Shown piece after piece: positions 3,056 to 29,194 of a stretch of DNA of 29,194 nucleotides (position 1 is its first letter; the number at the start of each line of letters is the position of its first letter). The notes under the pieces are model-generated. The model was given only the letters and a program-made list of their open reading frames with translations. It had not been told where the DNA came from and did not search any database. The translations under genes and the position numbers were made by a program. Source of the stretch: Promethearchaeota archaeon (GTDB lineage Archaea; Asgardarchaeota; Lokiarchaeia; Sigyniarchaeales; SOKP01); NCBI GenBank assembly GCA_048941015.1, contig JBHLNZ010000039.1, positions 1 through 29,194 on the forward strand. Direction: 5' to 3'.

Positions 3056-3164
3056 TTTTTAATGTTCATTTGCTCATTTCCGTTTACATTTTTTTAATTA
3101 AATATAAAAATTTGCAGATATTACTCCATTTAATTATAATTTATTACTTAAGAAGCGAAAAACA

Positions 3165-3773
3165 TTGGTTGTAATTGCAGCAATCAATTTTGTTATAATG
3201 TTAAGCACTTTTTTTATAATGGGATATACTTATACTATAAGTATTCAACCTATGAAGCGTTCGGAAAAATATGGTGATAAAGCTTGGGCAGATTGTAAAA
3301 AATTCCGTTCAATCGGTGGAATAGCTGAGTTTATATCTATAGGTAATTTGATCCTGTGGATTTGGTTTCCATTACCTTTAGTAGATGAGTGGATTATTAG
3401 CTCAAATATCTGGATAGGGATCATTATAGGGATTTGTATCTTGATACCATGTACTTACCTTCTGATAAGAGGAATGAAAGATGCTGGATCTGAAACTTTA
3501 AGCCCTTCTAAAGAAACTAAAATGTATGGAGGGATATATAATTATATTAGGCATCCCCAAACCCTCGGTGAGTTTCCGATGTTTCCTGCTCTAGGCTTTA
3601 TATTTAATTCTTGGTTCTTAGTAATAATCTCGTCAATTTTTATTATTATATATGCTCCAATCATGATTCATTATGAAGAAAAAGATTTGCTAAAAAGATT
3701 TGGAGAAAAATACATGGAATACAAAAAACGAACAGGTATCTTAATTCCAAAATTAAGAAAAAAGGCAAAATAA
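3165..3773 (+). CDS. ICMT/PEMT-family integral membrane methyltransferase
   Basis: GGIYNYIRHPQ and EEKDLLKRFGEKYMEYKKRTGILIP motifs; about 5 TM helices. Confidence 0.9.
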   Translation: MVVIAAINFVIMLSTFFIMGYTYTISIQPMKRSEKYGDKAWADCKKFRSIGGIAEFISIGNLILWIWFPLPLVDEWIISSNIWIGIIIGICILIPCTYLLIRGMKDAGSETLSPSKETKMYGGIYNYIRHPQTLGEFPMFPALGFIFNSWFLVIISSIFIIIYAPIMIHYEEKDLLKRFGEKYMEYKKRTGILIPKLRKKAK

Positions 3774-3790
3774 TTAAATTAAAAATCAGG

Positions 3791-4213
3791 ATGAGAGAAT
3801 TAATGATTAAAAAAAATAAGTGGTTATTTGCAGCTTCGATTTGTATGTTGTTTTATTCTATTCTCGAGTTATCAGATAGTGTTATAATTATCCTAATGGC
3901 TCTAAATGTAATACCTAACCTTTATTTAGTCTTTGAATTTACTGTTCCTATTATACAGCAATTATTAGAATCCCAACCACTAACACTGGCACCAATTTTC
4001 TGGGCATTTACCTTAATGCGAGTTATTTCCACAATAGGTCTTTTTAGGAATCTATTATGGGGTTTATATCTTGGATTGATTAGTCTTATTTTAACAATGA
4101 TACTCACAGTTTTATTTCTGCCTTTTGGAAGTTTTGAACTTCTTGCATGTAGCATAATCCTTATCCTTCTTATAGTTGGATATTATGAGAATAAACCAAT
4201 TATAAATAATTAA
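3791..4213 (+). CDS. Hypothetical 4-TM membrane protein
   Basis: Hydrophobic 140-aa ORF starting 17 nt after the ICMT-family stop on the same strand, so probably co-transcribed. Confidence 0.78.
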   Translation: MRELMIKKNKWLFAASICMLFYSILELSDSVIIILMALNVIPNLYLVFEFTVPIIQQLLESQPLTLAPIFWAFTLMRVISTIGLFRNLLWGLYLGLISLILTMILTVLFLPFGSFELLACSIILILLIVGYYENKPIINN

Positions 4214-4265
4214 AGAATAAATAGAATTGATAAAATTGAGTAAATTTATTTAATGCAAAATTAGG

Positions 4266-4805
4266 TTAATTATTATTTTTATGAAGTAAGACTATAGTTA
4301 TTAGATTTGCTAAGTTTGAGAAATCAGTAGTCTCTGGATTATCATTTTGAGCATCCCAACCAAAGAGCATTTTTGCTGCCTTACCATATTTCGATACATA
4401 CCATTTCATAATTGTCATTTTTTGGTTTATATCTGAGACATACTCTATTCGAGGTTTGAAATGATGAAATCCACGTATTACGGATATATCGTCAGGGTTT
4501 GCCCTCATATTTTTTATCCAAGTTGCATTCTCTCCTCTTGCAGCAAAGATAGTGATCGTTCCTTCATATCTTCTGTATTCTAATGGAGTTCTTCTCGTTT
4601 TTCCTGTTTTCCATCCTTTTGTCTTTAAAATCAGAAAAATCTTTCCGAATCCAAATAAAGGCAATATCCTTGCTCTATACAAAGGGATCATCAAATATTT
4701 ATTTAGGTTTCTCCATCTTTTTAAAGTTTTATTTTTAGATACTTCATCTTTGTAATGAAAATTAAACATTACTGATCCAGGACGCGGTAATTTTTCTTTA
4801 TTCAT
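4266..4805 (-). CDS. Deazaflavin (F420)-dependent oxidoreductase, nitroreductase/Ddn (FDOR-A) family
   Basis: LILKTKGWKTGKTRRTPL and W..N.RANP signature; GAGGT RBS just upstream of the ATG. Confidence 0.88.
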   Translation of the reverse strand: MNKEKLPRPGSVMFNFHYKDEVSKNKTLKRWRNLNKYLMIPLYRARILPLFGFGKIFLILKTKGWKTGKTRRTPLEYRRYEGTITIFAARGENATWIKNMRANPDDISVIRGFHHFKPRIEYVSDINQKMTIMKWYVSKYGKAAKMLFGWDAQNDNPETTDFSNLANLITIVLLHKNNN

Positions 4806-4890: not shown

Positions 4891-5982
4891 TTATTTTATT
4901 TTGAGGCATTGAGCCAAACATCTTTTGACACAAGCATTACAATTTATACATTTCTCACGATTTGTTAAGTCAACTTTCTTATCTTTTTCATTAAATAGAT
5001 ATAAATTCCTAGGACATACTTCTATACATACTTTGCATCCAATACATTCATCTCTCTCGATATTTATTTGACCATAGGGTTGTAATTTATATTCACCAAA
5101 CAAAAACTTCATTTTCTCATCACCTTTCTTCCAAGTTTTTGCTCCTAATTCACTTTTATAAATTGGAGTTAGTCCATGAAAATCTTCTGCCATAACCAAA
5201 GTAATTAAAAGTGAAAAGACTATGTTCCAAATTAGATAAAGAAGATTAATTATGATTATTAAGTTAAATAGAACTATTAAAAGGAGGAATATCCCCTCAT
5301 AAATCCAAACTTTTATTTTTCCTGTTTTTGTAGGAATGCTAGGCAAAATCAACATAGTTCCATAAATTATAATAACAAAAATTAAAATGGTATCTAAATA
5401 AAGAATTATATTCAAAATTGGTAAAAATATAGCAACAATCCAATAGATAACGGAAGCTAAAAGAGTTAAAATAAAGAAATATAATGTAGCCATTTCAATT
5501 CTGTTAGAGACGGGAAATCTTATTGTTCTTTGTGCCTTTGATTTATTATATTTTTGACTTATATAAGAGGGGATATCTTTAGCGTACACAGGTCCAAATT
5601 TTACATCCCACCCCGTCTTTTTTTTAATGATAAGGGGATCCATTCCAGGAGCACTTAATTGAGGTAAAATTAGAGTTCTATGTGACACAAGAAGATCAAT
5701 TCCACTGGTTTTTATAATTGACAAGACAGAATCAGTATTAAAATCGTCTCCACAGGCTCCACACCATACATTAATTCCCCTGGAAGGAGCAATTAATAAA
5801 TAACAATCGAGGTTTTTTATTGCCTTTAGAACTCTTTTTACAGTTAAAATAAAATTACATGTTAATAAAACTGGACTTTCACTTGTAGGATTTCCAACTT
5901 TTATAAGAGTTGGTTCTATCGGAAATCCAGTCCATCTTAAGAAATAACTTAGAAATAAGTGTATTGATTTTTTAATCTTCAT
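4891..5982 (-). CDS. HgcAB-like fusion protein: corrinoid-binding domain + ~4 TM + 2[4Fe-4S] ferredoxin
   Basis: GNP..ESPVLLT.N...TV, cap region GINVWCGACG (HgcA consensus G(I/V)NVWCAAGK), HRTLILPQLSAPG, GW.VKFGPVYAKDIP.Y, TM block ending DFHGLTP, CIGCKVCIEVCP and CINCNACVKRC. The ATG at 5982 follows an AGGTG RBS and is preferred over the GTG at 5991. Confidence 0.92.
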   Translation of the reverse strand: MKIKKSIHLFLSYFLRWTGFPIEPTLIKVGNPTSESPVLLTCNFILTVKRVLKAIKNLDCYLLIAPSRGINVWCGACGDDFNTDSVLSIIKTSGIDLLVSHRTLILPQLSAPGMDPLIIKKKTGWDVKFGPVYAKDIPSYISQKYNKSKAQRTIRFPVSNRIEMATLYFFILTLLASVIYWIVAIFLPILNIILYLDTILIFVIIIYGTMLILPSIPTKTGKIKVWIYEGIFLLLIVLFNLIIIINLLYLIWNIVFSLLITLVMAEDFHGLTPIYKSELGAKTWKKGDEKMKFLFGEYKLQPYGQINIERDECIGCKVCIEVCPRNLYLFNEKDKKVDLTNREKCINCNACVKRCLAQCLKIK

Positions 5983-6065
5983 TTTAGGCACCTTAATGTT
6001 AAATAATTTATCACTTTATTAAAAGAAGATATCAAAATGAATGAAATATTTATCAGATAGAATTT

Positions 6066-6725
6066 TTAAAGCTTTTTTTTTAATCTAAATAACTTTAAAG
6101 TGTCTAATAGATAATATTTTTCTTCAATTAAAGAAAAATTATACCCATCAAGCCGTTCTTCTATATTTTTTAAAGATCTAGTGGTTAATTGTGACTTAAA
6201 ATATGTAATAATTGCTAAGGGAATTCTAACAAAAAAATACACAATTTTCTTCCAAATTTTCTGAGGTTTAACCTCATCAACTAAAATGAATTCTCCGTCA
6301 TCCTTTAATTTTTTATAGATTTGTTTCAAGCAGAAATTTTGTTCATCTTGATAAAATTCACTAAATGATAAAATAGCTGTTATTTTATCAAAAGATTTAT
6401 CAGTAAATTGTACATCTAATTCAATAACCGGCATTTTAATAATTTGGATATTGTCTTTTAGTCCTTCTAATTCAATATTCTTTTTTGCTACCTCAAGCAT
6501 TTTTTCCGAATAGTCGATACCGATAACCTTTGCCCCTTTTTTAGCACATAGAATGGCAAATGTTCCTGTACCCATACCAATATCTAAAAGGATATCATTC
6601 TTAAGTACCAATTTATCTGAGATATATCTTTTGATTTTTTGTAAGCGCCCTAATGTTAAATAATTAATTCCTTTATCATATTTTTCGGCCTTCTTTTCCA
6701 ATGCTTTCATATAAACATATGACAT
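6066..6725 (-). CDS. cpaM: Corrinoid protein-associated SAM methyltransferase (CpaM-like)
   Basis: N-terminus SYVYMKALE....YDKGI..LTLG as recalled for CpaM; LLDIGMGTG, GIDYS..ML, SFDKI, FSE, DEV.P. Lies directly upstream of the HgcAB-like gene. Confidence 0.8.
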   Translation of the reverse strand: MSYVYMKALEKKAEKYDKGINYLTLGRLQKIKRYISDKLVLKNDILLDIGMGTGTFAILCAKKGAKVIGIDYSEKMLEVAKKNIELEGLKDNIQIIKMPVIELDVQFTDKSFDKITAILSFSEFYQDEQNFCLKQIYKKLKDDGEFILVDEVKPQKIWKKIVYFFVRIPLAIITYFKSQLTTRSLKNIEERLDGYNFSLIEEKYYLLDTLKLFRLKKKL

Positions 6726-6841
6726 TTCTAAAAATACCGCCTATAGAAATAATTTCTTTTTAATAACTTATAAATTTCATATGTCTTGACTCTTAAATTT
6801 TTCTTGAGGAAAAAAGATAGACAAAAGAGAGAAAGTTTTTA

Positions 6842-6862
6842 TAATAAACTGTAAGTTTATTA
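6842..6862. promoter_or_regulatory. Inverted repeat TAATAAACT-gta-AGTTTATTA in the divergent cpaM / GTPase intergenic region; candidate operator
   Basis: Perfect 9-bp arms with a 3-nt spacer. It is AT-rich, so it could occur by chance. Confidence 0.3.
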
Positions 6863-6945
6863 CTTACACTATTTTGTAAAAAAAAATATAAATTAGAGCA
6901 TTAGAATCAAATCTAATTAAAGTTCTAAAGAGGGAATAATAGAGA

Positions 6946-7644
6946 TTGATTAGAAGGGGTGAGATTGATTACCTTTGTCTTAAAATTGCCCAGATAAAGT
7001 CCAAGAAACAAGAGTCTGGGTTATCTGAGCCATATCCTGAAGCAATCCCTAGAAAAGTAGAAGAAATACCAGAAATACAATATGATGCTACATTTAAAAT
7101 AGTTATATTTGGTGATCCTGGGGTACATAAACAAGGATTAACTGAAAAATTTTTAACAAATACACTTAGCTCGGATTCCACATCGACAATTGGAGTGGAT
7201 CTTAAAGTAAAGGGCATTAAAATTGATGGAAACAAGGTTAAATTAGAAATTTGGGATTTTGGTGGTGAGGAGCGATTTAAATTTTTGCTACCTATATATG
7301 CACGAGGAGCTAAGGGAGGTTTTTTCATTTATGATATCAAGAATTCTTCATCCCTTGCTCATATTGAAGATTGGTTAACTCTTGTTTGGAGAAAAATTAA
7401 TATAGAGAAACATTTTCCGATTATAATGGTAGGGATTATGCATGATGACGAGAATGAACGACAGATTTCAGCAGAAGCGGCTATAGAAATCGCTAAGTCA
7501 AAGGATATAGATGGTTTTATTGAATGTAATATTAATACAGGTGAAAATGTTGAAGAAGCTTTTGAGCAATTGACCAAATTGATGCTTGACAATGAAAGGG
7601 AAAAATTTAGTGAAGAATTACGTGAAATCAGTGATTTATTATAA
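6946..7644 (+). CDS. Rab/Ras-like small GTPase with degenerate nucleotide-binding motifs
   Basis: FKIVIFGDPGVHKQ (G1), TIGVD (switch I), LEIWDFGGEERF (G3), GFFIYDI, VGIMHD (G4 degenerate), ECNINTGENVEEAF (G5 degenerate). The TTG start is uncertain. Confidence 0.9.
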   Translation: MIRRGEIDYLCLKIAQIKSKKQESGLSEPYPEAIPRKVEEIPEIQYDATFKIVIFGDPGVHKQGLTEKFLTNTLSSDSTSTIGVDLKVKGIKIDGNKVKLEIWDFGGEERFKFLLPIYARGAKGGFFIYDIKNSSSLAHIEDWLTLVWRKINIEKHFPIIMVGIMHDDENERQISAEAAIEIAKSKDIDGFIECNINTGENVEEAFEQLTKLMLDNEREKFSEELREISDLL

Positions 7645-7736
7645 TTATACAGAAAGGAAAATTATTTGTAATCTCCTTAGTAAAACACGATAATAAATAA
7701 AAAGGGATCTGAGTTAACGCAATAATTATTTGATAA

Positions 7737-9890
7737 TTAGAGATTTTTCAATTTTTCTTGTTCCTTTCGCTTCTTTTTTTCTAGTTTTTTCTTTTGTTTT
7801 TCTAATTTTTTTCGCTTTTTTGCTTCTCGTTTTGCTTCTTTTTCTTTTTGTTTTCTCTCTCGTTTTAATCTTTCAAGTTCCTGTTTTTCTTTTACAATAG
7901 CTTCTAATTCTTGCCTTTCCTTTTCTATTCGTTCCTGTTCTAATCTTATAGCTTCCTTTTTCTCTTGTTCGATTTTTGCTAATCGTTCTTTTTCTAATTG
8001 TTCTTGTGCTTGTTTTTCTTTTTCTAGGCGAATTCGTTCAAGCCGCTCTTTTTCTTTTCTTTCCTTCTCTAGTCTCTCTCTCTCTTTTCTTTCTTGTTCT
8101 AGTCTTTCTAATCTTTCTTTCTCTAAACGGGCTTTTTCAATTCGTTCTCTTTCTAGTCTTTCTTGTCTCTCTTTCTCTAATCGAGCTTTTTCGATTCGTT
8201 CTCTTTCCAATCTTTCCGCCTCCTCTATCTCAAAAAGCCATTTATCTACTTTTAGAAGTAAATCCGCCGTTTCTTTTTTGGATAACCCCAAGCCTGATTC
8301 TTTTTTAATGTAGATATTAGCATATTTACTCATTTCCCATATTTTTTTCTGGTGTAAAGTGGTTGCGCTCACCCCCATCTGTCTTGCAGTTTCCCTCGCA
8401 AGTTCGAAAGCTTGTCCAATCGAGTGCATTTCATAGTCTCCCTCAATTACATTCTTTAAATACAGAAGTATCTGCTTAATGTCTGCTTCAGGCGGGGAGG
8501 GTAATGGTTTAAGTTCAACAATTTCTGATTTTAACGTATCTAATTCAAATGCTTCTTGTTCGATTTCCCTTATTTCTGGTGTTTTAATGTCGGGAGTTTG
8601 GACCTGAACTTGATCCCAATCTGAAGGTGGCTCTACAAGTTTAGGGATAACTATAGGTTCTTTTTTTACTTTTCTTTGAAATTCTACTGGCCAACTGATA
8701 AATGAATATATACGATCTTCCGCTGAGACAAATATTGATTCTTTAGAAAGTTTTTTAGCTTCTGTGCCTGTCGGTTTCGAAAAGATTGGTGGCATACTCG
8801 ACTTTAATGATAAAAAAGCATTTTCTATTATAGAGAATAGATACATAGGATCAAACTCAAGAGGAGAATAAGTAGACATCAAAGTTTGATTATTATACTC
8901 AATAACACTGAGATTTGTGGGAGAGATAGTTTCCTCTAAAAGAACGTCTGCTGTAAAATCAATCCCATTTAATCCTGCTGTTGGATTGAGGTAAGAGGAT
9001 CCTGGTTTGGTTTTCATTTTATCAGAAACTAAAATTTGGTTATAATAGTCTCTGTGTGCGCTTAAAATTTTATAACCCTCATTTGAGATCTGAAAGGAAT
9101 TATCCGTACGTAATTTTTCCATCATCTCTAAAATTATATCCTTTTTAGGAATGAATACATTTCGCATTAATGCCCCCTTTATAAAGGTTAAGTGATCTTC
9201 TGATTTATTAGACAAATCGAGAGGGATTTTTATCACTTTCTCTGCTATAATTACGTCGCGATCATCTTCTAAAGTTACATTTCCTGAAGTAGCCATATGA
9301 TCGTAAACAAAATCTGATAACACTAATCCAGTTAAGATTCGATTATCAGTTACATAATTGCCGGATTCTAATTCAAATTTGAGGAAATAACATCCTAGGC
9401 CAAAAAGATAATGAACTGTTCCTTGTTTAGTTTCAATTGAATAATCCAAACCACTAAAGAAGATAACGGTGTCCATCTCTATGTTTGAGACAGGATGATG
9501 GACATAAGTTCCTAATGTGGGATAACCTAATAAATCACTCCAACTCGGGATCATAAAAAGCGAGTAATTGGGATATAATTTACTTTCCATTTTCAATTGT
9601 TCAAATCTTTCTTTTTCAAGTCTTTCTCTTTCAATTCTCTCTCTTTCAATTCTTTCTTGTTCGGCTCTTTCCATTTCAAGCCTTACTTTTTCAAGTCTCT
9701 CTTGTTCGATACGTTCTTGTTCAAATCTCTCTCTTTCCATTATTTCTTGTTCTGATTCTTCTTTTTTAAGTTCTTCTTTTTCAGGTTCTTTTTTTTCAGA
9801 GTTTTCCTTCATTAAAGCTTCTAGTTCACGGATCTCTTTTTCTAATTTTTCCATATCCGAGTCATCATCATTATTTTTCTCAATCCCCAT
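7737..9890 (-). CDS. Large hypothetical protein with N- and C-terminal E/R/K-rich single-alpha-helix/coiled-coil tracts flanking globular domains
   Basis: 717-aa ORF; pentad ERxE(Q/R/K) repeats at both ends; Pro-rich linker; Lys-rich tail. Confidence 0.88.
8109..8216 (-). repeat. 54-nt tandem duplication encoding [17 protein letters not shown](Q/L) x2
   Basis: Seen directly in the translation and DNA; the copies differ at synonymous positions. Confidence 0.8.
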
Positions 9891-10083
9891 AATATCAACT
9901 CTAAATATAATTTTTTATTAAAATAATTTTAACGAATAACTATTTCTTACTCTTCACTATAATAAAATTTATACTTTTATAGTCTTTGGATTTTCATAGA
10001 TGATTTATTCTTTTAAAGTCTATCGAATAATATTAATAAGGAGACTATAAGAATTTTTTTAAGGGAGTAAAATAGTAAAGATC

Positions 10084-10995
10084 GTGATGACGTCTCTTAA
10101 TATTCTTCCTATGAGTATTGGCTTTATTCTATTCATTTTGGCTTTTATACATGCATTGTTTGATGGTAAGCACAATCTCGTGCAGCGAGTTCTAATGCTA
10201 GCAACACTTTTTTTCTATGGAATTTTATTGGAGTATATTGGAATTATTTCTGGGCATCACTATTATGCAGTGGAGCCTATTATGATTTTAGGAGTAGTTC
10301 CTCTATCGATTCCATTAGCGTGGGTTGGGATTATATATAGTGCGATGATAATTGGTGAACGACTCGAATTATCGCTATGGAATCGCATATTAACAACTAC
10401 TTTACTAGCTTTAAGTTTAGATTGGGGTATGGATCCTATTGCGGTTGAGTTAGGGTTATGGACATGGACGCACGAAGGAGGTTCATTTTTTGGAGTTCCA
10501 AGTTTTAACTTTATAGGTTGGTTTTTTATTCCTGTAGCGTATTTAATAGCCTATAATTTGCATTGGAATAAAGAGCGCAATAAAATAGAGCTCCTTTCGA
10601 TAAGTGAAATTGATAACCATGTATCTTTGAAGCGTAGGCTTTATACATTGTTTTTCGTCATCCCAATAGCTTTAGGTTTTCTAATATTAATAGGCTTAAT
10701 TACTACAATCCCAATAATATATAATTTACCATTTGTTATTGTAGTAATTTGGGAAATTCTTACAATAGTATATACATCTTGGATGGTTTTAAGGAACAGA
10801 GATAAATTATATCGAAAATTCTGGTACGATCTAATTCCTCCGATCATTATTTTGTATATTGGGTATAGTTATGCCGTTCTTGGGTTCTCTATAGGTCAAC
10901 TAATGTTAGGTATTTTCATGTGTATTACACCAATTCCATTATTATTGGTGTTAATTTTTAATCTGCTAAATGGAAGGAAAGTGATTAGAAAGTAG
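10084..10995 (+). CDS. Carotenoid biosynthesis protein family (CruF/DUF422-like hydratase), membrane protein with C-terminal TM extension
   Basis: E..G...G...Y, LGVVPL.IPLAW, D..MDP.AV..GLW.W and FFGVP..NF.GWF motifs. Confidence 0.82.
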   Translation: MMTSLNILPMSIGFILFILAFIHALFDGKHNLVQRVLMLATLFFYGILLEYIGIISGHHYYAVEPIMILGVVPLSIPLAWVGIIYSAMIIGERLELSLWNRILTTTLLALSLDWGMDPIAVELGLWTWTHEGGSFFGVPSFNFIGWFFIPVAYLIAYNLHWNKERNKIELLSISEIDNHVSLKRRLYTLFFVIPIALGFLILIGLITTIPIIYNLPFVIVVIWEILTIVYTSWMVLRNRDKLYRKFWYDLIPPIIILYIGYSYAVLGFSIGQLMLGIFMCITPIPLLLVLIFNLLNGRKVIRK

Positions 10996-11148
10996 AGAAC
11001 TCAAATAAAGCGAAATTATCAATTATTTTTTTCTAAATATCTAATAATTTTATTTAAATAAAAACAATGCGTAAGATTATACTTAATACATAAATTTTTA
11101 ACTTATTAATTGAGAGCATGATTCAAATTTTTAAAGAGGTTATAAACA

Positions 11149-11661
11149 ATGGGTAGAAGTATTGCTATTTTAGGTATTTTAGGAATAATTTTGGGAGCAG
11201 GTGGTTTAGGATTAGGAGGTTATATGTGGATATCTCTAGCAAGAGTAGAAAATCAAGTGAATAGTATTTCAGGACAATCTTCATGGTATAAATATAATGA
11301 GACTAATTTTGCATCTGATCCAGCCTATACTTACTTGCCATTCTTTGGTTTAACTATTGATTTTGAACTTGGATTCAATGAATCAGTATATTTTAATTTT
11401 ATGGCTCTGGCTCATTTAGAACCAGCTGCAATGTGGTCACAAATCTATGCATTATTCAGAGTAGATGGAATTACTGATACAAGCCATTACGCTTTAGTGG
11501 GACTATATAATGGTCAGACTGCTTCTCTTATGATAACTTTACAACATAAAACTTTCGATCTATCTCTTGGAGAGCATAATGTTACTGTAGTTATATATGG
11601 AACTTCAACGGGCAATTACATTTACCGTAGTTCGTTGTTTGTTCAGAGGTTTTCGGTATAA
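11149..11661 (+). CDS. Membrane-anchored/secreted beta-sandwich protein, GLGLG-anchor family; paralog of 588-1094
   Basis: MGRSIAILGILGIILGAGGLGLGGY; sequons NET, NES, NVT; aligns by eye with the 588-1094 product over its whole length; GAGGT RBS. Confidence 0.87.
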   Translation: MGRSIAILGILGIILGAGGLGLGGYMWISLARVENQVNSISGQSSWYKYNETNFASDPAYTYLPFFGLTIDFELGFNESVYFNFMALAHLEPAAMWSQIYALFRVDGITDTSHYALVGLYNGQTASLMITLQHKTFDLSLGEHNVTVVIYGTSTGNYIYRSSLFVQRFSV

Positions 11662-11676
11662 ATTATGAAGTTAATA

Positions 11677-11685
11677 TTTTTTTTT
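11677..11685 (+). terminator. Oligo-T terminator candidate
   Basis: T9 run 15 nt after the stop of 11149-11661. Confidence 0.45.
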
Positions 11686-11782
11686 CAATCTAATTTTTCT
11701 CCATTAAAAATTAATAGTTAAATAAATTGGATTCTTAATAGAATTGTAACAATCTATCAATTTTAGGTAAAGAATTACTTTC

Positions 11783-12790
11783 ATGTACTCTGAGCTTGAG
11801 GATTCGGAAAACAGTATTTATATTAATATCTTAAAGAAATCCACAGATTATAAAACACTCTTAAACTTTGAAAATTTTGAAGGATATATTACTAAAACGT
11901 CTATCACTAAAATTAGAAAGGCTCTAACTAATTTTATCCAAAATATAAAGCATGATAAAATTTCTCGCATCCTACCTATTTTAGTATCATCTAAATTCGA
12001 AAAAGTTAGACTGCTTGATTTAATAGAAGTAAAGCTTCAAGATGCGCGAATGGTATATGTTCCAAGTCCACCTGCGTCTGAGCACATATTCTACCATATA
12101 TACAATTGTTTAATTGAAGAACTGGGATTAAATATCCTTGATGAAATCTCAAACAAGATTCAGACTGAAAATGTTAGGAGAAGTCGATGTGTAAGAGCAA
12201 TTATAGATTACATTCATAATGAAGAGAAAAAAAATGTGGTAATGCGATGGTTTTTGGGTGAAAAATTATCCAACAGTGAAAAAAACATGTTAGGTTTTAA
12301 AGATAATATAGAAGCAGATGATATTTCACTTGAAATGATAAAATTAATTGGCAATTTCTCTAATGAAGTTATCTTACTTTATTTTGATGATATAGAATTG
12401 CCCTATACGGAATTTGGAGAATTTGCTGAAAGAAAATTTTTAGAAACCTTAAAAAGATTAAATCGCGATGTAAAACAGCTAATTATCATCCTAATCTGCT
12501 CCAGAAATTCATGGCCTAAAATACTAAAACTTGCTGATCAGACTCTCAGTTCAATTTTAGGACCAGAAATGGAATTCTACGATCTTTCAGAGGTAAAAAA
12601 ATTAATTTCAAGCGCGATGGATGAATATTGGTTGAAAAATGACATAAAACCTCCAATAAATCAATTTTTTCCTCTCAATGAGAAGCTAATTAATGAATTT
12701 TTTAAACAGTCCGACGGAGAGATAAGACCTTTCTTAAAAGCATATATAGAAGGAATCAGAAAAATAATATCAGGCGAAATATCCATTTAA
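11783..12790 (+). CDS. AAA+/BrxD(DUF2791)-like P-loop protein with degenerate Walker A
   Basis: RWFLGE....E...LG....I motif and Walker B-like ILLYFDDIE; helical lid with PFFPL-like and G.IR.FL motifs. The Walker A position reads ILVSSKFEKVRLL. Confidence 0.7.
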   Translation: MYSELEDSENSIYINILKKSTDYKTLLNFENFEGYITKTSITKIRKALTNFIQNIKHDKISRILPILVSSKFEKVRLLDLIEVKLQDARMVYVPSPPASEHIFYHIYNCLIEELGLNILDEISNKIQTENVRRSRCVRAIIDYIHNEEKKNVVMRWFLGEKLSNSEKNMLGFKDNIEADDISLEMIKLIGNFSNEVILLYFDDIELPYTEFGEFAERKFLETLKRLNRDVKQLIIILICSRNSWPKILKLADQTLSSILGPEMEFYDLSEVKKLISSAMDEYWLKNDIKPPINQFFPLNEKLINEFFKQSDGEIRPFLKAYIEGIRKIISGEISI

Positions 12791-12821
12791 ATCAATATTC
12801 TGGCTAATTTTGAGATTTTAG

Positions 12822-12989
12822 ATGGGAATGGATTTGGTATTTTCTTCAATGATCTTTCCTTACTGGGTGACTAGTTTAGGAAGATGGATATTTTTTATCA
12901 TTAATCTCTTAGTTGTTGTACTAATATGTGTAAAGTATGGAATTAAGAACCTCTCAAAAGAACTAAGAGATACTAGGATTATAACCTAG
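12822..12989 (+). pseudogene. Probable C-terminal remnant of a CPBP (CAAX protease) family membrane gene, or a small membrane protein (55 aa)
   Basis: Translates to MGMDLVFSSMIFPYWVTSLGRWIFFIINLLVVVLICVKYGIKNLSKELRDTRIIT. The TM + YGIKNLS ending matches the C-terminus of 22650-23462 (LYGIKNLSMKE). Confidence 0.5.
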
Positions 12990-13060
12990 TCACAATAAAA
13001 TAACAGGTGTTACTCACGACACTAAATTTGATATGTATAAATAACAATTTTCTTTTCTAA

Positions 13061-13220
13061 AAAAAAAGGTGACAATTTAACCGATGAACGAGGTTAATCA
13101 TCTTAGATCAAGGTCGATCACACAGTAAACTTAAAAGAGTACTAAAGATTTCAACTGGCGAATAGAATTTTCTAATCGGGAGTATTAAATCTCGAAAATC
13201 TTAAAATTGTACCTTTTTTT
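13061..13220. repeat. Imperfect ~20-bp inverted repeats bounding a 160-bp element with internal hairpins
   Basis: AAAAAAAGGTGACAATTTAA (13061-13080) vs TTAAAATTGTACCTTTTTTT (13201-13220), plus an extra GTCACCTTTT at 13223-13232; internal TTAACC..GGTTAA hairpin. Confidence 0.35.
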
Positions 13221-13767
13221 CCGTCACCTTTTAACTTCTATTTATCAAGATCTATATTTTCGTGATTTATATTTAAATATAGTCCTTATGGATTAATTTA
13301 AAATTTATAATTGGCTCTGGTTTCAAATTCCTATAATTTTGCATTAAAAAGTTCAATTTATAAACTTTTTAAAAGTAACTAAAATCTCTAATATACCAAA
13401 AATTCCCCCTTAATCAAAAATGAATTAGTACCACTTCTTAAAAGTCTGGAGGAGAGATAAGAACATCCATAAAGTAATATAAAGAAGCTATTTATAAAAT
13501 TATAATCTCGCAAAATATCCGATGAGTTCATAAGAGTCAAATTTTGTCAAGTCTTAATTAAAAAATAGGTATAGCCTATTATTTTCAAAAATAGAGGGAG
13601 TTAAATGGACTGATTTTATAAATCCATCTCTTTTATTTTATAAGTTTGATTACTTTCTTCCAATATAATATTAAAATGAATTAAAATTCCTTAACAGACT
13701 TTATTTTGATAATAAATTTCTATAGCCTGTACTATACAACATAAGGTATTATAGAAAGTATTGGACT

Positions 13768-14274
13768 TCACAAAATAACAGGGGAAGGAAAATCATTTCT
13801 TAACACCACAATTTCTCCTAAATCTACGTTATTTTCATTTAGCCAAGATTCGGGTAACGCGATATTCATTTGATCCTTATCTTGATCATTGAAATCGAGT
13901 AATTCATTTAGTTGTAAGCCACATTTATTAGTGCTTGTTTGATAAAAGCAGTTCATTAATTTAATTATTTGACTAATGTATTCTTTATCAACGTATTGGT
14001 ATGTTTTATTAACAAGTGATTGAATTACATCTCGTAAGAGCCAATAATTAGTCATAATTTCATGGAAATATGGGATTAATATGAATTTATCTAGAAATCT
14101 CTTTTTAGAAGGAGATTGAAGAAGGTTACTTATTTTAATATATTTACCGGGTTTTAAATTATATTTTTTAATAGTTTCTTCGTTAGTAACAACAATATTA
14201 TTAAAATTTTTAATACTAGCAGTTACTTTAGCAAGATACCAACTATATTTCCGAGAGATTATATTTATTTTCAA
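13768..14274 (-). CDS. Hypothetical protein with two double-psi beta-barrel-like half motifs
   Basis: IVVTNEETIKKYNLKPGKYIKISN and IALPESWLNENNVDLGEIVVLRN resemble CDC48-N/UFD1 DPBB repeats, separated by a helical insert. Confidence 0.7.
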   Translation of the reverse strand: MKINIISRKYSWYLAKVTASIKNFNNIVVTNEETIKKYNLKPGKYIKISNLLQSPSKKRFLDKFILIPYFHEIMTNYWLLRDVIQSLVNKTYQYVDKEYISQIIKLMNCFYQTSTNKCGLQLNELLDFNDQDKDQMNIALPESWLNENNVDLGEIVVLRNDFPSPVIL

Positions 14275-14469
14275 TTCAATTCATATAATCATGTTTTTGA
14301 TATTTAAATTTATTTAGTTTTAAAAAGGAGTTAAAAAAAGTAAAAGAAATCAATCAAAAATGAAAATTAGGATAATTATAAATGGATGATGAAGGAAACT
14401 ATATATAGCTTCTAAAATTTATGGAGTTAGTAAAATAGATAATAAAATTCATCATTAAATGAAATCCAA

Positions 14470-14919
14470 ATGAAGAAAGAAAATGTAAGAGACAAGTTTG
14501 TTGGAGCGTGGAAGCTTATTGCTTATGAAATTCGAACAATTGATGGTCAGGTTTTAGAGAAAAATGAATTAACGGGCATATTGATATATAGTAAGGAGGG
14601 ATATATGTCAGTCCAGATGATGAAACCTGAACGCCCGAAATTTCAAGATGGTACTGGAGAGGATCTTGATGGAGAATCAATTGAGGTGATTAAAGCTGCA
14701 TTTGAGGGGTATGGAGGTTATTTTGGTAAGTATACTCTCGATGAAGAGAACGGAATTATAACACATCATATTCTGGGATCTCATATTCCAAATTGGGTAA
14801 GTATGGATTTTGAGCGTCTTTACCGATTTTTAGGAAATAAATTAGAACTTACTTCACGACCATTTCAATCTGATGACAAAAGAGTCTTTTATTACCTACT
14901 TTGGGAGCGTTTTAAATAA
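14470..14919 (+). CDS. Lipocalin-like domain protein (Lipocalin_5 type)
   Basis: FVGAWKL..YE, G.LIY...GYMSVQ, YFG.Y, ITHHI..S..PNWV, LLWER. Confidence 0.88.
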   Translation: MKKENVRDKFVGAWKLIAYEIRTIDGQVLEKNELTGILIYSKEGYMSVQMMKPERPKFQDGTGEDLDGESIEVIKAAFEGYGGYFGKYTLDEENGIITHHILGSHIPNWVSMDFERLYRFLGNKLELTSRPFQSDDKRVFYYLLWERFK

Positions 14920-14964
14920 ATTATAGAATTAAAAACGATAGACTTTTTCGCGTAGGAAGGAAAC

Positions 14965-15645
14965 CTAAAAAGAATACGGCTTATCTTTAAGCCTTTTTCG
15001 GGTATTATATTTTCGTGCTCTCATTCTCCAACCTAGATTACCCATTGTTTTGTAGAGACCGACTGGTATTAAATTCTTTGAAATGAGATCGAGAGCTTCT
15101 TGAGAGACATTTTTACCTTCTGATGAAGCCTCACTTGCAAGGTCTAATCCTTTCATCACATTTCTTACCATGCCTCCGCGTTCTTTAAGGGGTATTCCAT
15201 GTACTGCTTCTCCTCCTCCAAAAGCAATTCCTCCCTTCCACGTAAAACCAGCCTCACTTGCGAATATTTGGCAAATTTCTAACGCTACACTTATTTGTTT
15301 CGATTCTGGAAATCCCGAATTGGAGATGGCGACAAAATTCTGAGACTTCGAGCTTTTTATTCTGTCTCGTTCGCTTTTTATCAGTTCCATGGCTTTAATA
15401 ACTGGTGCGGGTAAGCTATCAACATATAATGGAAAAGTTAAAATAATTAAATCAGCGTTCTCAATCATCGAAAATAATTCTTGTACTTTTTCTGGGCGAT
15501 TAACTAGTCTATGTATGAATGTTTTCTCGCTTTTCATCCCTAATTCTTCCAATTTCTCTACTAAGTAATTTCCAAGGGATGCAGAAGTACTATTTTCTCC
15601 TCGAGGGCTTCCAACTAAGAGAAGAACATTCTTTGGATTATTCAT
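14965..15645 (-). CDS. Flavodoxin-like NAD(P)H-dependent (FMN) oxidoreductase
   Basis: LLVGSPR..NSTS, ADLIILTFPLYVDSLP, NSGFPE. Overlaps the upstream gene by ATGA, indicating translational coupling. Confidence 0.88.
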   Translation of the reverse strand: MNNPKNVLLLVGSPRGENSTSASLGNYLVEKLEELGMKSEKTFIHRLVNRPEKVQELFSMIENADLIILTFPLYVDSLPAPVIKAMELIKSERDRIKSSKSQNFVAISNSGFPESKQISVALEICQIFASEAGFTWKGGIAFGGGEAVHGIPLKERGGMVRNVMKGLDLASEASSEGKNVSQEALDLISKNLIPVGLYKTMGNLGWRMRARKYNTRKRLKDKPYSF

Positions 15646-16232
15646 GCTTCTGCCTCCACTTTTTTTAAAATTTTTTTGAACTCGTTTAAAAATTCGGTCT
15701 GATCGCCATTCTTAGTATAGATTATAACATTATGATGCGGTGCTTCCGTATTTAACGAATTACGATGCACTAATTTTCGGAATACGGATTCTTTCGCCTT
15801 ATCAGGTTTATCTAAAAATCCTACAACAATAATAGAAGCTCGTTTTTCATAACGTTGTTTATGGTGAATTTCACCTGCTCGTTTTGTAAAGAAAGGTAAT
15901 ATGGTTGGGATAAATCTATCTATCACTTTCTTTAATTCAGAAGAATATCCTCCAAATGTTATTGGAGTAAAATGCAGAATGAGATTAGTTTGAACCATCT
16001 TTTTAGCGATTTCTCGACCAGAATCATCGATCTTGCATTCTCCCGGTGTTTTAACCCAGCAATCGAAACAACCTTGACAAGCCGCAACTTTAACATCCCT
16101 TAGTAGAATAGATTCAACATTATAATCCCGACGCTTTATTTCTTCTACTATTGACGAATATAGCAAGTCAATTTCAGAATCTTCAGTAATACTTCCATTT
16201 AATAATAATGCGTTAATCATTTTTTCAATCAT
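15642..16232 (-). CDS. Iron-sulfur flavoprotein-like flavodoxin family protein
   Basis: LLNGS, CQGCFDCWVKTPGECKIDD Fe-S motif, TPITFGGYSSELKKVIDR. The true start may be the second Met. Confidence 0.9.
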   Translation of the reverse strand: MIEKMINALLLNGSITEDSEIDLLYSSIVEEIKRRDYNVESILLRDVKVAACQGCFDCWVKTPGECKIDDSGREIAKKMVQTNLILHFTPITFGGYSSELKKVIDRFIPTILPFFTKRAGEIHHKQRYEKRASIIVVGFLDKPDKAKESVFRKLVHRNSLNTEAPHHNVIIYTKNGDQTEFLNEFKKILKKVEAEA

Positions 16233-16307
16233 CTTATTCGATAAAATAAATCCTTAATTAAAAAAAATGTATAGACCAATTTTTTTATCGTATTAATTAG
16301 TATTAAA

Positions 16308-16820
16308 TTAAAGGTTTATAATAAAATCCCCAGAGCATTTTTCACGAGAATTTAATAAACATTTATCGATTTCAGGCTCAATAGTATGATCAATTCCTAG
16401 TCCATCTAACCAACAACTCACTCGATAAATTACCCCACATTCATACTCTTTCTCAAATCCAAACATTTTCATTCCATTATAGGCAAAACATTTGTTCATT
16501 TCCCAATGCATCCGATTTTTTTGAGGAAAAGTGTAGACAAAGTCCATAAAATCCCCTTTTAAGATGCTAAAAGCGTTATCAATAAAATCTTTTAATTGAT
16601 CAAAGGTTTTGATTTTCAATTTATCCAAACCCATTGCCTTTTTGATTCTTTGCATTTCAATTGTTGAAAGAGTTTTAATAGCCGCTTTGTTTAGTTTATT
16701 AGCAGCATCAATTCCTAATTCTCGACCACAATTATAAAACCAGGCACCGTCGTGAGTCATCCAACACTTCACAAGTAGTTCTTTTAATTGCTTCTTATCA
16801 AGTTGATCAAATAATACCAT
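16308..16820 (-). CDS. DUF6125-family protein (V4R-like small-molecule-binding fold)
   Basis: K.WMTHDGAWF, G.DAA..LN..A and conserved Cys (KCFAY, YEC, KC....KC). Confidence 0.75.
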   Translation of the reverse strand: MVLFDQLDKKQLKELLVKCWMTHDGAWFYNCGRELGIDAANKLNKAAIKTLSTIEMQRIKKAMGLDKLKIKTFDQLKDFIDNAFSILKGDFMDFVYTFPQKNRMHWEMNKCFAYNGMKMFGFEKEYECGVIYRVSCWLDGLGIDHTIEPEIDKCLLNSREKCSGDFIINL

Positions 16821-27838: not shown

Positions 27839-29194
27839 TTAGAATTTATCAGCTTTATTTCTTGGATAGCGCTTTTTCTTATTTATTTCTTTAAAGAAAA
27901 GGATGGTAATAGCTATTCCAGAAATTGTTATAAGTAAAGTTATGGGGGTTCCTGAAATAGGTATTGGAGGAAAATACATACCGATAATTACTTTTACATT
28001 TGAGAATGTTTCATATGAATTACCTAAAACACTTTCATAATACAAATTAATTGTGATTAAATAAGTTCCATTACCTACGGATGCTGAAGGCTGAATTTCT
28101 AATAAAAATGATATTATTTGGCCATATTCTAAGTAGGTGATAGCTTTTGTATCATTTAGAATTTCGTCAATCCAATAACTAAAATTATTGGGAGCTGAAA
28201 TGCTTACATTTATGTTTCGAGCATTACCTTCCACTGATTTTATAATTACTTCTACCTCTTTAACATCCTGCACTTTCCCACCATAATCATATTCAATTTC
28301 TACTGGTTGTGGCGATATAATAACATTTGGATTACTAATCGGTGCTACAGCACCCAAATAGAAGGGAAAGTAAAAAATTAAGGCTAAGCTGAAAATAAGA
28401 ATTATCTTTTGTCCAATTTTGCGCAATTCTTTTAATTGAGTTTTTTTCAGCGTTAAATATAGAAATACACCAAATAAAAAAGATATAGTAGGGGTATACA
28501 AGAAAAGCAACATAAAAAAATTACCAAAATAATAACTTCTATTTATTAAGAAATACAATATTGTTATTATACTAAAAGAACTTAATATATACTTAAAAAA
28601 ATCACGTAAAATTTTTCCTTTATTATGAATTGAACTTATTAAAGAGCGGATTTGATAAAATAAGAAATAGATTGCTAGGATTAAGATCCCTAGTAATCCT
28701 ATGAAAAGTAAGTTAGCAAGTTCTCTGCTAGTAACCCAATATAATGGATAATTTACTTTTATTTGATTTTTTAAAAAAATTAAATATAAGCTGCTTATAA
28801 GTATTACTGAATTTAAAATAATGAGATAATTCTTTTCTTTTCTTACACGTCTTAATTGTGACCTTAAATCCACATTTTCAATAGCCTTTTTAATTATAAG
28901 ATCATAGAGATTTTGAATAGTTTTTTGGAGATTAGAACTATTAAACTCAAGTCCTAATCTTGAACTGAGGAGAGGAGGGATATCTTCAGCTTTTGTAAAT
29001 ATTGGTATAATAGGTTTTCCTAAAGAGTCGGCAGCAGTCCATTCCTTTTCGACAGGAATAGAATTTAATGAATTTTTAGAACAAAATAAAAGTACCACAT
29101 CACATTTTCCAAGATTGTCATTCATAAATTTAAAAATATTATCATGCATATCTTCTTGCCAATAAAGAACATCATCAATTCCTTCAAAATCAGT
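27839..29194 (-). CDS. TIR-domain membrane protein (TIR + 5 TM + extracellular Ig-like domain + C-terminal TM); 5' end lies beyond the window
   Basis: The frame is open to the edge (TDFEGIDDVLYWQED-MHDNIF...). TIR motifs CDVVLLFCSKNSLNS..VEKEW.AA...GKPIIPIF..EDIPPLL; hydrophobic helices; beta-rich domain with GTY.ITI.LYYE. Confidence 0.9.
   Translation of the reverse strand, partial: TDFEGIDDVLYWQEDMHDNIFKFMNDNLGKCDVVLLFCSKNSLNSIPVEKEWTAADSLGKPIIPIFTKAEDIPPLLSSRLGLEFNSSNLQKTIQNLYDLIIKKAIENVDLRSQLRRVRKEKNYLIILNSVILISSLYLIFLKNQIKVNYPLYWVTSRELANLLFIGLLGILILAIYFLFYQIRSLISSIHNKGKILRDFFKYILSSFSIITILYFLINRSYYFGNFFMLLFLYTPTISFLFGVFLYLTLKKTQLKELRKIGQKIILIFSLALIFYFPFYLGAVAPISNPNVIISPQPVEIEYDYGGKVQDVKEVEVIIKSVEGNARNINVSISAPNNFSYWIDEILNDTKAITYLEYGQIISFLLEIQPSASVGNGTYLITINLYYESVLGNSYETFSNVKVIIGMYFPPIPISGTPITLLITISGIAITILFFKEINKKKRYPRNKADKF

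Follow-up and report, generated by a model that had tools for sequence, protein, structure and literature searches.

A predicted membrane-spanning TIR protein with an extracytoplasmic β-sandwich, apparently assembled by domain fusion, in a Lokiarchaeia-type Asgard archaeon

TIR (Toll/interleukin-1 receptor) domains link the immunity of bacteria, plants and animals, and TIR enzymes are switched on by self-association. To our knowledge, the coupling of a TIR domain to the cell exterior has been regarded as an invention of animals, represented by the Toll and interleukin-1 receptors (TLR and IL-1R). These receptors are single-pass type I proteins in which the ectodomain, of the immunoglobulin-superfamily or leucine-rich-repeat (LRR) type, comes first and TIR comes last; they recruit adaptors. 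Here, we consider a gene at the end of a 29,194-nucleotide stretch of DNA from a Promethearchaeota archaeon (GenBank assembly GCA_048941015.1, contig JBHLNZ010000039.1, positions 1 to 29,194), hereafter the window, which is the entire contig G000:C92. Its product is a conserved, intact protein from the archaeal lineage closest to eukaryotes, with a TIR domain predicted inside the cell and a folded binding-type domain predicted outside. A first-pass annotation, made from the letters of the window, had proposed a receptor-like protein with a cytoplasmic TIR, five membrane helices, a glycosylated Ig-like ectodomain and a C-terminal anchor.

Several described systems come close. In passages of one paper, Rst_2TM_1TM_TIR and TIR-NLR are named among the Asgard defence systems (PMC11291487), and a second discusses Asgard defence in general, as far as its excerpts go (PMC11249213). 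Parts of two preprints treat, respectively, Thoeris types with membrane effectors (bioRxiv 10.64898/2025.12.03.692087) and TIR defence systems in a general survey (bioRxiv 10.1101/2024.10.26.620412). Among the papers retrieved on Asgard TIRs, none, judged by title and abstract, describes membrane TIR receptors in Asgard archaea. The TIR considered here has the same fold and the same position of the key glutamate as AbTir, SPARTA TIR-APAZ, ThsB, Cat1 and SARM1, but it differs from them in lacking the tryptophan four residues before that glutamate and in being fused to a six-helix module with an ectodomain; moreover, no gene for a partner effector stands beside it, and activity is predicted here.

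The likeness to IL-1R and TLR lies in the general plan, in which TIR inside the cell is joined across the membrane to an Ig-like or repeat domain on the outside. In contrast to the animal receptors, TIR comes first in the window protein and is followed by six helices, with the sandwich inserted between helices 5 and 6, and this sandwich is of a generic E-set/CARDB-like kind. The analogy to IL-1R with a reversed domain order, drawn in the first-pass annotation, thus holds for the order of the domains and for the placement of TIR inside and the sandwich outside, but it is a loose one, the protein being polytopic and having no domain of the immunoglobulin superfamily. Since the membrane module also exists alone (see below), the animal receptors and the window protein were most likely built independently.

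The gene occupies positions 27839-29194 of the minus strand, where an open frame of 451 amino acids runs from 29194 to a stop codon at 27839-27841; its 5′ end is open, with no start codon in the window. The missing beginning has been recovered from another contig of the same genome (3.59 Mb in 144 contigs, rated 95% complete). The terminal 77 bases of the window are identical to the opening 77 bases of contig C28, which adds 35 codons back to an ATG (MQNKSK...; L003:78-182, minus strand), and the window therefore holds the 3′ 451 codons and the stop of a gene of 486 codons. Three full copies of 486 amino acids in the protein database, derived from other assemblies (contigs of 42,440, 8,852 and 1,811 bases), agree with this join, and the 451- and 60-residue pieces from the window genome are deposited beside them. 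Residue numbers below refer to the 486-residue protein (subtract 35 for the window frame); the database copy P0001 served for the full-length analyses and for both structure models, and it departs from the window protein at two positions, both in the loop between transmembrane helices 1 and 2 (TM1 and TM2).

One might suspect a chimeric assembly, or a gene in decay, the contig end cutting the gene inside the TIR core, where the summed depth of contigs from four public runs goes up 3- to 7-fold (29050-29194). The contig ends there because paralogs have this core in common. That the fusion is not a chimera follows from the three independent full-length copies and from the metagenome contig L023 (4.3 kb), which carries a 477-residue ortholog, 82% identical, directly behind the thioesterase and LigB-dioxygenase genes, as at the start of C28; furthermore, orthologs down to 62% identity carry no stops. 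Mean pairwise identity among the six orthologs is 0.87 in TIR, a sign of strong constraint, as compared with 0.66 both in TM1-5 and in the sandwich, and with 0.38 in TM6 with the tail. The probability of an artefact, raised together with the first annotation as something that might overturn it, has become practically negligible; to judge from these sequences, the gene is real and whole, and the membrane protein is intact and under selection.

Two observations from the public runs may be added. Many contigs with 4-15 differences map to 29050-29194 and nowhere else in the window. In run X6, one contig joins 27754 to 27861, skipping 106 bases that include the stop codon and the final seven codons; it is a strain variant with an altered C-terminal tail.

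The TIR domain extends over about residues 11-140, of which residues 36-140 are encoded in the window (28880..29194, minus strand), the first β-strand and helix A lying off it; Pfam TIR_2, AlphaFold2 (AF2), Foldseek and VIA all identify it. The Pfam TIR_2 model (PF13676, cut-off 28) is matched with 48.4 bits by the full protein and with 34.4 bits by the window fragment. Given six near-identical sequences as its sole input, AF2 left the TIR part unfolded (predicted local distance difference test, pLDDT, under 50), and with an alignment of 78 sequences, it modelled residues 1-156 confidently (pLDDT 88.9, predicted template-modelling score 0.82). A Foldseek search with this model gave 94 PDB matches at E <= 0.001 with TIRs on top: AbTir was first (7uxu, E = 6e-6, TMt 0.73), followed by Hydra TRR-2 (TMt 0.75), SPARTA TIR-APAZ, BtpA, SARM1 and MyD88. 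In VIA comparisons, the model superimposes on Hydra TRR-2 (Z 14.5, 3.2 Å, 121 residues), SPARTA TIR (Z 14.5, 2.5 Å, 125 residues) and SARM1 (Z 14.2, 2.7 Å, 121 residues), and the 50 listed TIR-type chains range over Z 12.7-14.5, with enzymes and adaptors tied within about one Z unit. A single-sequence search of the PDB returned a bacterial SEFIR domain as its sole match (E about 0.8). The fold, a flavodoxin-like TIR, is thus confidently assigned in the models.

What points to an enzyme-type TIR is the sequence pattern around Glu86 (E51 in the window frame; codon 29042..29044, minus strand), which occupies a catalytic-type position. It is the second glutamate of VEKEW, the motif singled out in the first annotation, and it corresponds to the canonical W-x-x-x-E position, with proline in place of tryptophan four residues before it (P-V-E-K-E-W). 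All 78 aligned TIRs have Glu86, which is one of six invariant columns in all (F15, S17, D22, L35, E86 and P99), and so do 12 of the 12 TIRs of the window genome; the F-x-S-Y/H...D motif of strand A is likewise conserved in the family. A PDB profile search was run from a TIR-only alignment (A4), the wider one (A3) being swamped by LRR parts, and it aligns Glu86 with the glutamates of WCWDEL in Cat1 and of WVKKEI in a TIR-TPR protein (9m0n). Judging from the alignments, TIR has the enzyme-type pattern with the canonical glutamate conserved, and this residue is necessary, but not sufficient, for placing a TIR in the enzyme class.

TIR is followed by a basic juxtamembrane stretch, ENVDLRSQLRRVRKEKN (28829..28879, minus strand; 6 K/R in 17 residues), modelled as a helix that leads from TIR helix E into TM1. 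In both AF2 models, the basic stretch RSQLRRVRKEKN belongs to a single continuous helix running from TIR helix E into TM1, predicted with moderate confidence and spanning residues 121-177 in the full model and 121-155 in the TIR model. Five membrane helices come next, all encoded on the minus strand and identified by both hydropathy and AF2: TM1 (residues 158-176, 28772..28828), TM2 (197-215, 28655..28711), TM3 (234-252, 28544..28600), TM4 (262-280, 28460..28516) and TM5 (299-317, 28349..28405). A sixth, the C-terminal anchor helix TM6 (451-469, 27893..27949, minus strand), stands after the β-rich domain. The AF2 helices coincide with the hydropathy segments (block-mean pLDDT mostly about 77-93), and six hydrophobic segments are found in all six orthologous proteins, so that the helix count of the first-pass annotation stands. 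For the five-helix bundle, a wide VIA search gave no specific match, and an Atlas search with the helical part alone gave no usable one.

The predicted orientation, with TIR inside and the sandwich outside, fits the distribution of charges across the family, as the first-pass annotation had argued from the positive-inside rule. Among 23 family members, K+R per 100 amino acids amount to 27 before TM1, 23 in the loop between helices 2 and 3, 34 in the loop between helices 4 and 5, and 36 in the tail, all predicted to be inner, versus 6 in the loop between helices 1 and 2, 11 in the loop between helices 3 and 4, and 7 in the sandwich, predicted to be outer (23-36 vs 6-11). The sandwich of P0001 is net acidic, with 6 K/R vs 14 D/E. 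Another pointer comes from P0131, P0133 and P0137, three distant TIR-less homologs from GC-richer organisms. Where other members pass directly from the sandwich to the anchor helix, these three have CFI-box-CTERM (NF041770, E 1e-18 to 3e-22), a domain usually placed at the C-terminal end of exported proteins, together with several further helices.

The predicted extracytoplasmic β-sandwich comprises 128 residues (318-445; 27965..28348, minus strand), with nine strands modelled between residues 325 and 439 at pLDDT about 83-95; the AF2 models thus provide both the confident TIR fold and this domain, which the first annotation had described as a β-rich segment of about 115 residues with four sequons. 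When the model of residues 319-442 was compared by VIA with 48,161 PDB representatives, many E-set/Ig-like sandwiches were retrieved at Z 9-12.6, the best being a BBSome domain (Z 12.6, 1.8 Å, 98 residues), with macroglobulin MG domains, an ArnB paralog, domain III of HAP2/Fsx1 and a FixG-related protein among the further ones. Foldseek pointed to TRAP subunits (a sandwich plus one helix), to MSP/PapD-like domains and to the CARDB domain of Pyrococcus PF1109 (3idu, TMt 0.62), whose sandwich is similar. At the sequence level, the likeness to the NPCBM-associated NEW3 family is below the Pfam cut-off: residues 359-420 match NPCBM_assoc weakly (E = 0.07, 13.6-13.8 bits vs 24.4), just two of the 23 family members give this match even when E up to 1 is allowed, and Atlas gave weak CARDB/NPCBM leads for the membrane module (scores up to 0.80). 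No Ig or LRR family of Pfam matches the protein at E up to 1. The name 'Ig-like' is thus justified for the class of fold and for nothing beyond it; according to the model, this is a generic E-set sandwich and not an immunoglobulin-superfamily domain.

All four sequons noted at first are present in the domain (NVS364, NFS372, NDT382 and NGT410), and their excess over the 1.48 expected by shuffling is marginal (P = 0.04). NFS372 and N382-x-T are invariant across the six orthologs, among which NVS364 is seen in P0001 alone. NGT410, found in three of the six, is a part of an NGTY motif whose glycine and tyrosine are invariant across the module family (alignment A2), and this sequon may be structural. 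Glycosylation of the sequons is inferred from the sequence.

The rarity of this layout became evident from a word-index protein search, which gave 123 proteins, 120 of them listed. Six of those listed (477-489 amino acids, 62-100% identity) cover 90-100% of the query, and the TIR-first layout with five helices, sandwich and final helix is limited, among the 120, to these orthologs; besides the window protein's own cluster, they represent five other 90%-identity clusters at 62-82% identity to it. The sequences found so far thus indicate a rare fusion confined to six such clusters. The other 114 listed relatives have TIR alone in common (21-33% coverage) and, where a source is named, are labelled Promethearchaeota, Lokiarchaeota, Thorarchaeota or Hodarchaeota. 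By a crude hydropathy count, 75 of the 114 carry at least one hydrophobic segment, in every case before TIR, typically as proteins of about 410 amino acids with 5-7 segments or of about 255 with two. These membrane-tethered Asgard TIRs belong to the same TIR family (45-81% identical to the window TIR) and have TIR predicted to be cytoplasmic; unlike in the window protein, their helices precede it. The remaining 39 have no hydrophobic segment; among the families that Pfam assigns to them are LRR, Roc/Ras-type GTPase, TPR, WD40 and PCI. One soluble metagenomic relative, P0007 (604 amino acids), contains four tandem TIRs, which are 58, 53, 42 and 27% identical to the window TIR, and no hydrophobic segment.

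The non-TIR part has a history of its own. An exhaustive HMMER search with it against 1.84 billion representatives yielded 18 proteins at E up to 0.001 (down to 6e-57), namely one fused to TIR (P0005) and 17 without TIR. The stand-alone proteins (P0122-P0138), three of them fragments, are mostly 290-343 amino acids long and homologous to the window protein over the whole of its non-TIR part: they have the same helices, sandwich and anchor and keep the SP-x-P start of the sandwich as well as the G-x-A-W-N and NGTY motifs. Among the 14 module homologs scanned, none had a Pfam family. On the TIR side, a quick maximum-likelihood tree of 119 TIR segments unites the six fused proteins and P0008 in one clade (SH-aLRT 100), where P0008 adjoins P0005 and P0006 (support 93 and 89). 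P0008, a metagenomic protein of 293 amino acids, is 79% identical to P0005 over 173 aligned columns, the identities lying nearly all in residues 1-143, after which all similarity ends; its remaining 150 residues are soluble and without a Pfam match. A gelsolin-like assignment of this C-terminal part was considered and dropped, there being no Pfam match. Because a near-identical TIR is joined either to the membrane module or to the soluble tail of P0008, the sequences argue for module swapping: the protein appears to have arisen by fusion of TIR, from a family that has expanded in these archaea, onto an otherwise stand-alone membrane module, with the swap point at the end of TIR helix E.

In metagenomes, near-identical DNA (half or more of the words) has been detected in sediment and mangrove samples, in six runs of three studies, one of which is possibly the source; no RNA run is listed among the sequencing runs that match the DNA of the gene. 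The module profile A5 finds three loci on metagenome contigs and none in the species-genome collection or on viral contigs. A second match to the module within the order (E = 8e-4) contains five stops and was rejected as not credible.

By analogy with other TIR systems, the protein may be a surface-to-TIR sensor, a reading that we hold tentatively and put at slightly less than an even chance. Some surface or membrane event (contact with a ligand or a virus, clustering, or envelope damage) would alter the packing among copies of the membrane module; the rigid helix joining TM1 to TIR helix E would transmit this change and bring the TIR domains together; and their self-association would switch on the enzyme, the output being cleavage of NAD+ or synthesis of an ADP-ribose-derived signal. 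Both the NADase activity and the extracellular sensing are inferred by analogy. Several facts weigh against the sensor. The glutamate is conserved in more than 70% of all TIRs, some non-enzymatic ones included, and does not reliably track enzyme activity, as stated in the relevant passages of PMC7075850. The sandwich, as far as mean identity goes, is no more variable than the helices, unlike what would be expected from a receptor engaged in an arms race. The module occurs without a cytoplasmic output domain in 17 of its 18 representative matches, which speaks against a dedicated sensor module, and its presence in one of 154 species genomes of the order (that of the window itself) and in none of the 41 other species of the genus makes it look dispensable. 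The neighbouring genes are metabolic, with no defence island and no Thoeris-type effector adjacent. Finally, a simple script and the positive-inside rule, rather than a trained predictor, underlie the topology read from hydropathy.

The main rival to the sensor holds that TIR is a homotypic docking domain, by which soluble TIR proteins (with LRR, WD40, TPR, PCI or a Roc/Ras-type GTPase) would be recruited to the membrane, much as adaptors are by the animal receptors. We consider such a scaffold unlikely, though far from negligible. It would account for the unusual likeness of TIR cores across differing architectures, which are 45-81% identical to the window TIR in 77 proteins, as well as for the abundance of possible partners, the window genome having 12 TIR genes and 36 of 42 genomes of the genus having TIRs (0-16 matches each); however, this likeness may equally reflect recent duplication and domain shuffling. 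The structural comparison does not help to choose, the model being as close to MyD88, MAL and Hydra TRR-2 as to the enzymes (Z tied within about one unit), so that the fold, as modelled, is unable to separate a scaffold from an enzyme. The glutamate bears on both sides: on its own it is no proof of catalysis, yet it is invariant here, whereas MyD88, TIRAP and the endosomal TLRs mostly lack it (both points according to passages of PMC7075850). A quite improbable alternative reverses the direction of the signal. In it, TIR would respond to something in the cytoplasm, be it infection or a signal from other TIRs, by sensing it or assembling on it, and the six-helix module would be the effector, disturbing the membrane and arresting growth. 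Effectors that span the membrane are widespread in nucleotide-signalling defence, as described in parts of bioRxiv 10.64898/2025.12.03.692087. The module works without TIR in other proteins, and the helix that both models show running unbroken from TIR helix E into TM1 would suit such an inside-out device. But a conserved, well-folded acidic ectodomain with two invariant sequons would be superfluous for a pore, a toxic module would make the stand-alone homologs constitutively harmful, and no pore-forming family was matched, the sole hit of this sort being BB_PF (E = 0.021) in one of the 14 homologs scanned.

The C-terminus leads to one more alternative. The Pro-rich linker PPIPISG (residues 444-450; 27950..27970, minus strand), the last helix and a basic cytoplasmic tail (470-486; 27842..27892, minus strand; 8 K/R in 17 residues) are all present as first annotated; the tail, assigned from hydropathy, is the least conserved part of the protein. 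The further suggestion that they resemble a Loki-CTERM-like sorting signal did not hold for the window protein, which has no match to the Loki-CTERM model (NF033507, cut-off 19.9 bits) at E up to 5; nothing was found in the literature on Loki-CTERM. Were the last helix and tail such a cleaved signal, helices 1-5 together with a modified C-terminus would anchor the sandwich, and the role of the protein would lie at the surface or envelope, TIR being incidental to it. This is a very improbable reading, to which the ortholog P0006 lends some colour: its end, IIPGF, a helix and RKKK, scores 18.2 bits with Loki-CTERM, just under the cut-off, and 17.5 bits with Heimdall-CTERM (cut-off 24), and one more ortholog likewise ends in IPGF, a helix and RKK. 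The window genome, too, has 20 Loki-CTERM matches at E up to 1, seven of them over the cut-off, but the window protein is not among them, and at that threshold this short model is matched by 13 of the 14 control genomes as well. No exosortase/archaeosortase (PF09721) turned up in the genome, which is 95% complete, and the stand-alone homologs of the module end in plain anchors without a sorting motif. A PGF-CTERM/archaeosortase substrate was considered as well and rejected, since none of the proteins of the genome passes the cut-off of TIGR04126 and PF09721 gave no match. The final helix is best read from its sequence as a plain anchor, cleavage being a minor possibility.

The surroundings of the gene are conserved on one side. 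LigB-dioxygenase and thioesterase genes lie upstream, and DUF3303, a small ORF and a decarboxylase dependent on pyridoxal phosphate lie downstream; the gene order downstream is different in L023, in which the ortholog is followed not by DUF3303 but by an inosine-uridine nucleoside hydrolase (PF01156, E = 3e-11; L023:3661-4287). An A/T-rich, TATA-like stretch upstream of the gene and a T run about 60 bases past its stop, both noted by eye, suggest that it forms its own transcription unit. The protein falls outside Thoeris as defined by its TIR family and adjacent effector: it matches ThsB_TIR (PF08937) at E = 0.079 with 13.8 bits against a cut-off of 21.2, and no effector gene adjoins it. PADLOC, run on the window protein, returned bSEFIR alone (E = 0.086). 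The best matches of the neighbouring decarboxylase (84-90% identity) are labelled Hod-, Loki-, Thor- and Promethearchaeota and, together with the Asgard-labelled relatives of TIR, support the assignment of the window to an Asgard archaeon, in line with the Asgard origin already assumed in the first annotation.

Elsewhere in the genome, TIR genes form an island on contig C114 (L027, i.e., G000:C114:1-20000), where four of them (3100-4746, 4947-6590, 6778-9981 and 12752-16417) accompany a gene on the opposite strand (10062-11792, minus) for a 576-residue protein with two hydrophobic segments and a C-terminal NUDIX domain. One island protein consists of four transmembrane segments, TIR and about 260 amino acids without assignment, and another is a WD40 protein of 1221 amino acids with Pfam TIR_2 at its end. 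The two others are single-pass: a hydrophobic N-terminal signal, a WD40 propeller, one transmembrane segment and TIR make up the first, and an N-terminal signal, seven LVIVD repeats (E = 7e-85), a TSP3 repeat, one transmembrane segment and TIR make up the second, which is Toll-like in its layout. Because of these two propeller proteins, membrane-coupled TIRs appear to be a theme in the window genome. A paralog on contig C87 (L002:535-1836) has the reversed order, with about 260 residues containing many hydrophobic segments and then a C-terminal TIR; its TIR has 72% DNA identity to the start of the window gene, and the paralog matches bSEFIR (E = 2e-4) and SpbK (E = 3e-4) of PADLOC weakly. The single SIR2_2 match of the genome (G000:C62:23701-24072, E = 9e-10) lies inside a frame of 1361 amino acids, a possible NAD-consuming effector.

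The gene points to a route by which receptors may be built, namely the swapping of whole modules at the end of TIR helix E. Together with the Toll-like single-pass TIRs of the same genome, the window protein bears on the question of whether surface-to-TIR signalling predates eukaryotes or arose independently. More speculatively, and rather improbably, Lokiarchaeia-type Asgards might run a true outside-in TIR pathway, in which interchangeable surface modules, including the six-helix module with its Ig-like loop and the WD40 and LVIVD propellers, would feed one conserved cytoplasmic TIR that would either act as an enzyme or co-assemble with soluble TIR-LRR, TIR-WD40 and TIR-GTPase paralogs. The window protein would then be one more piece of a possible Asgard surface-to-TIR system, and such a pathway, if true, would give Toll/IL-1 receptor signalling a counterpart among prokaryotes, or even a forerunner.

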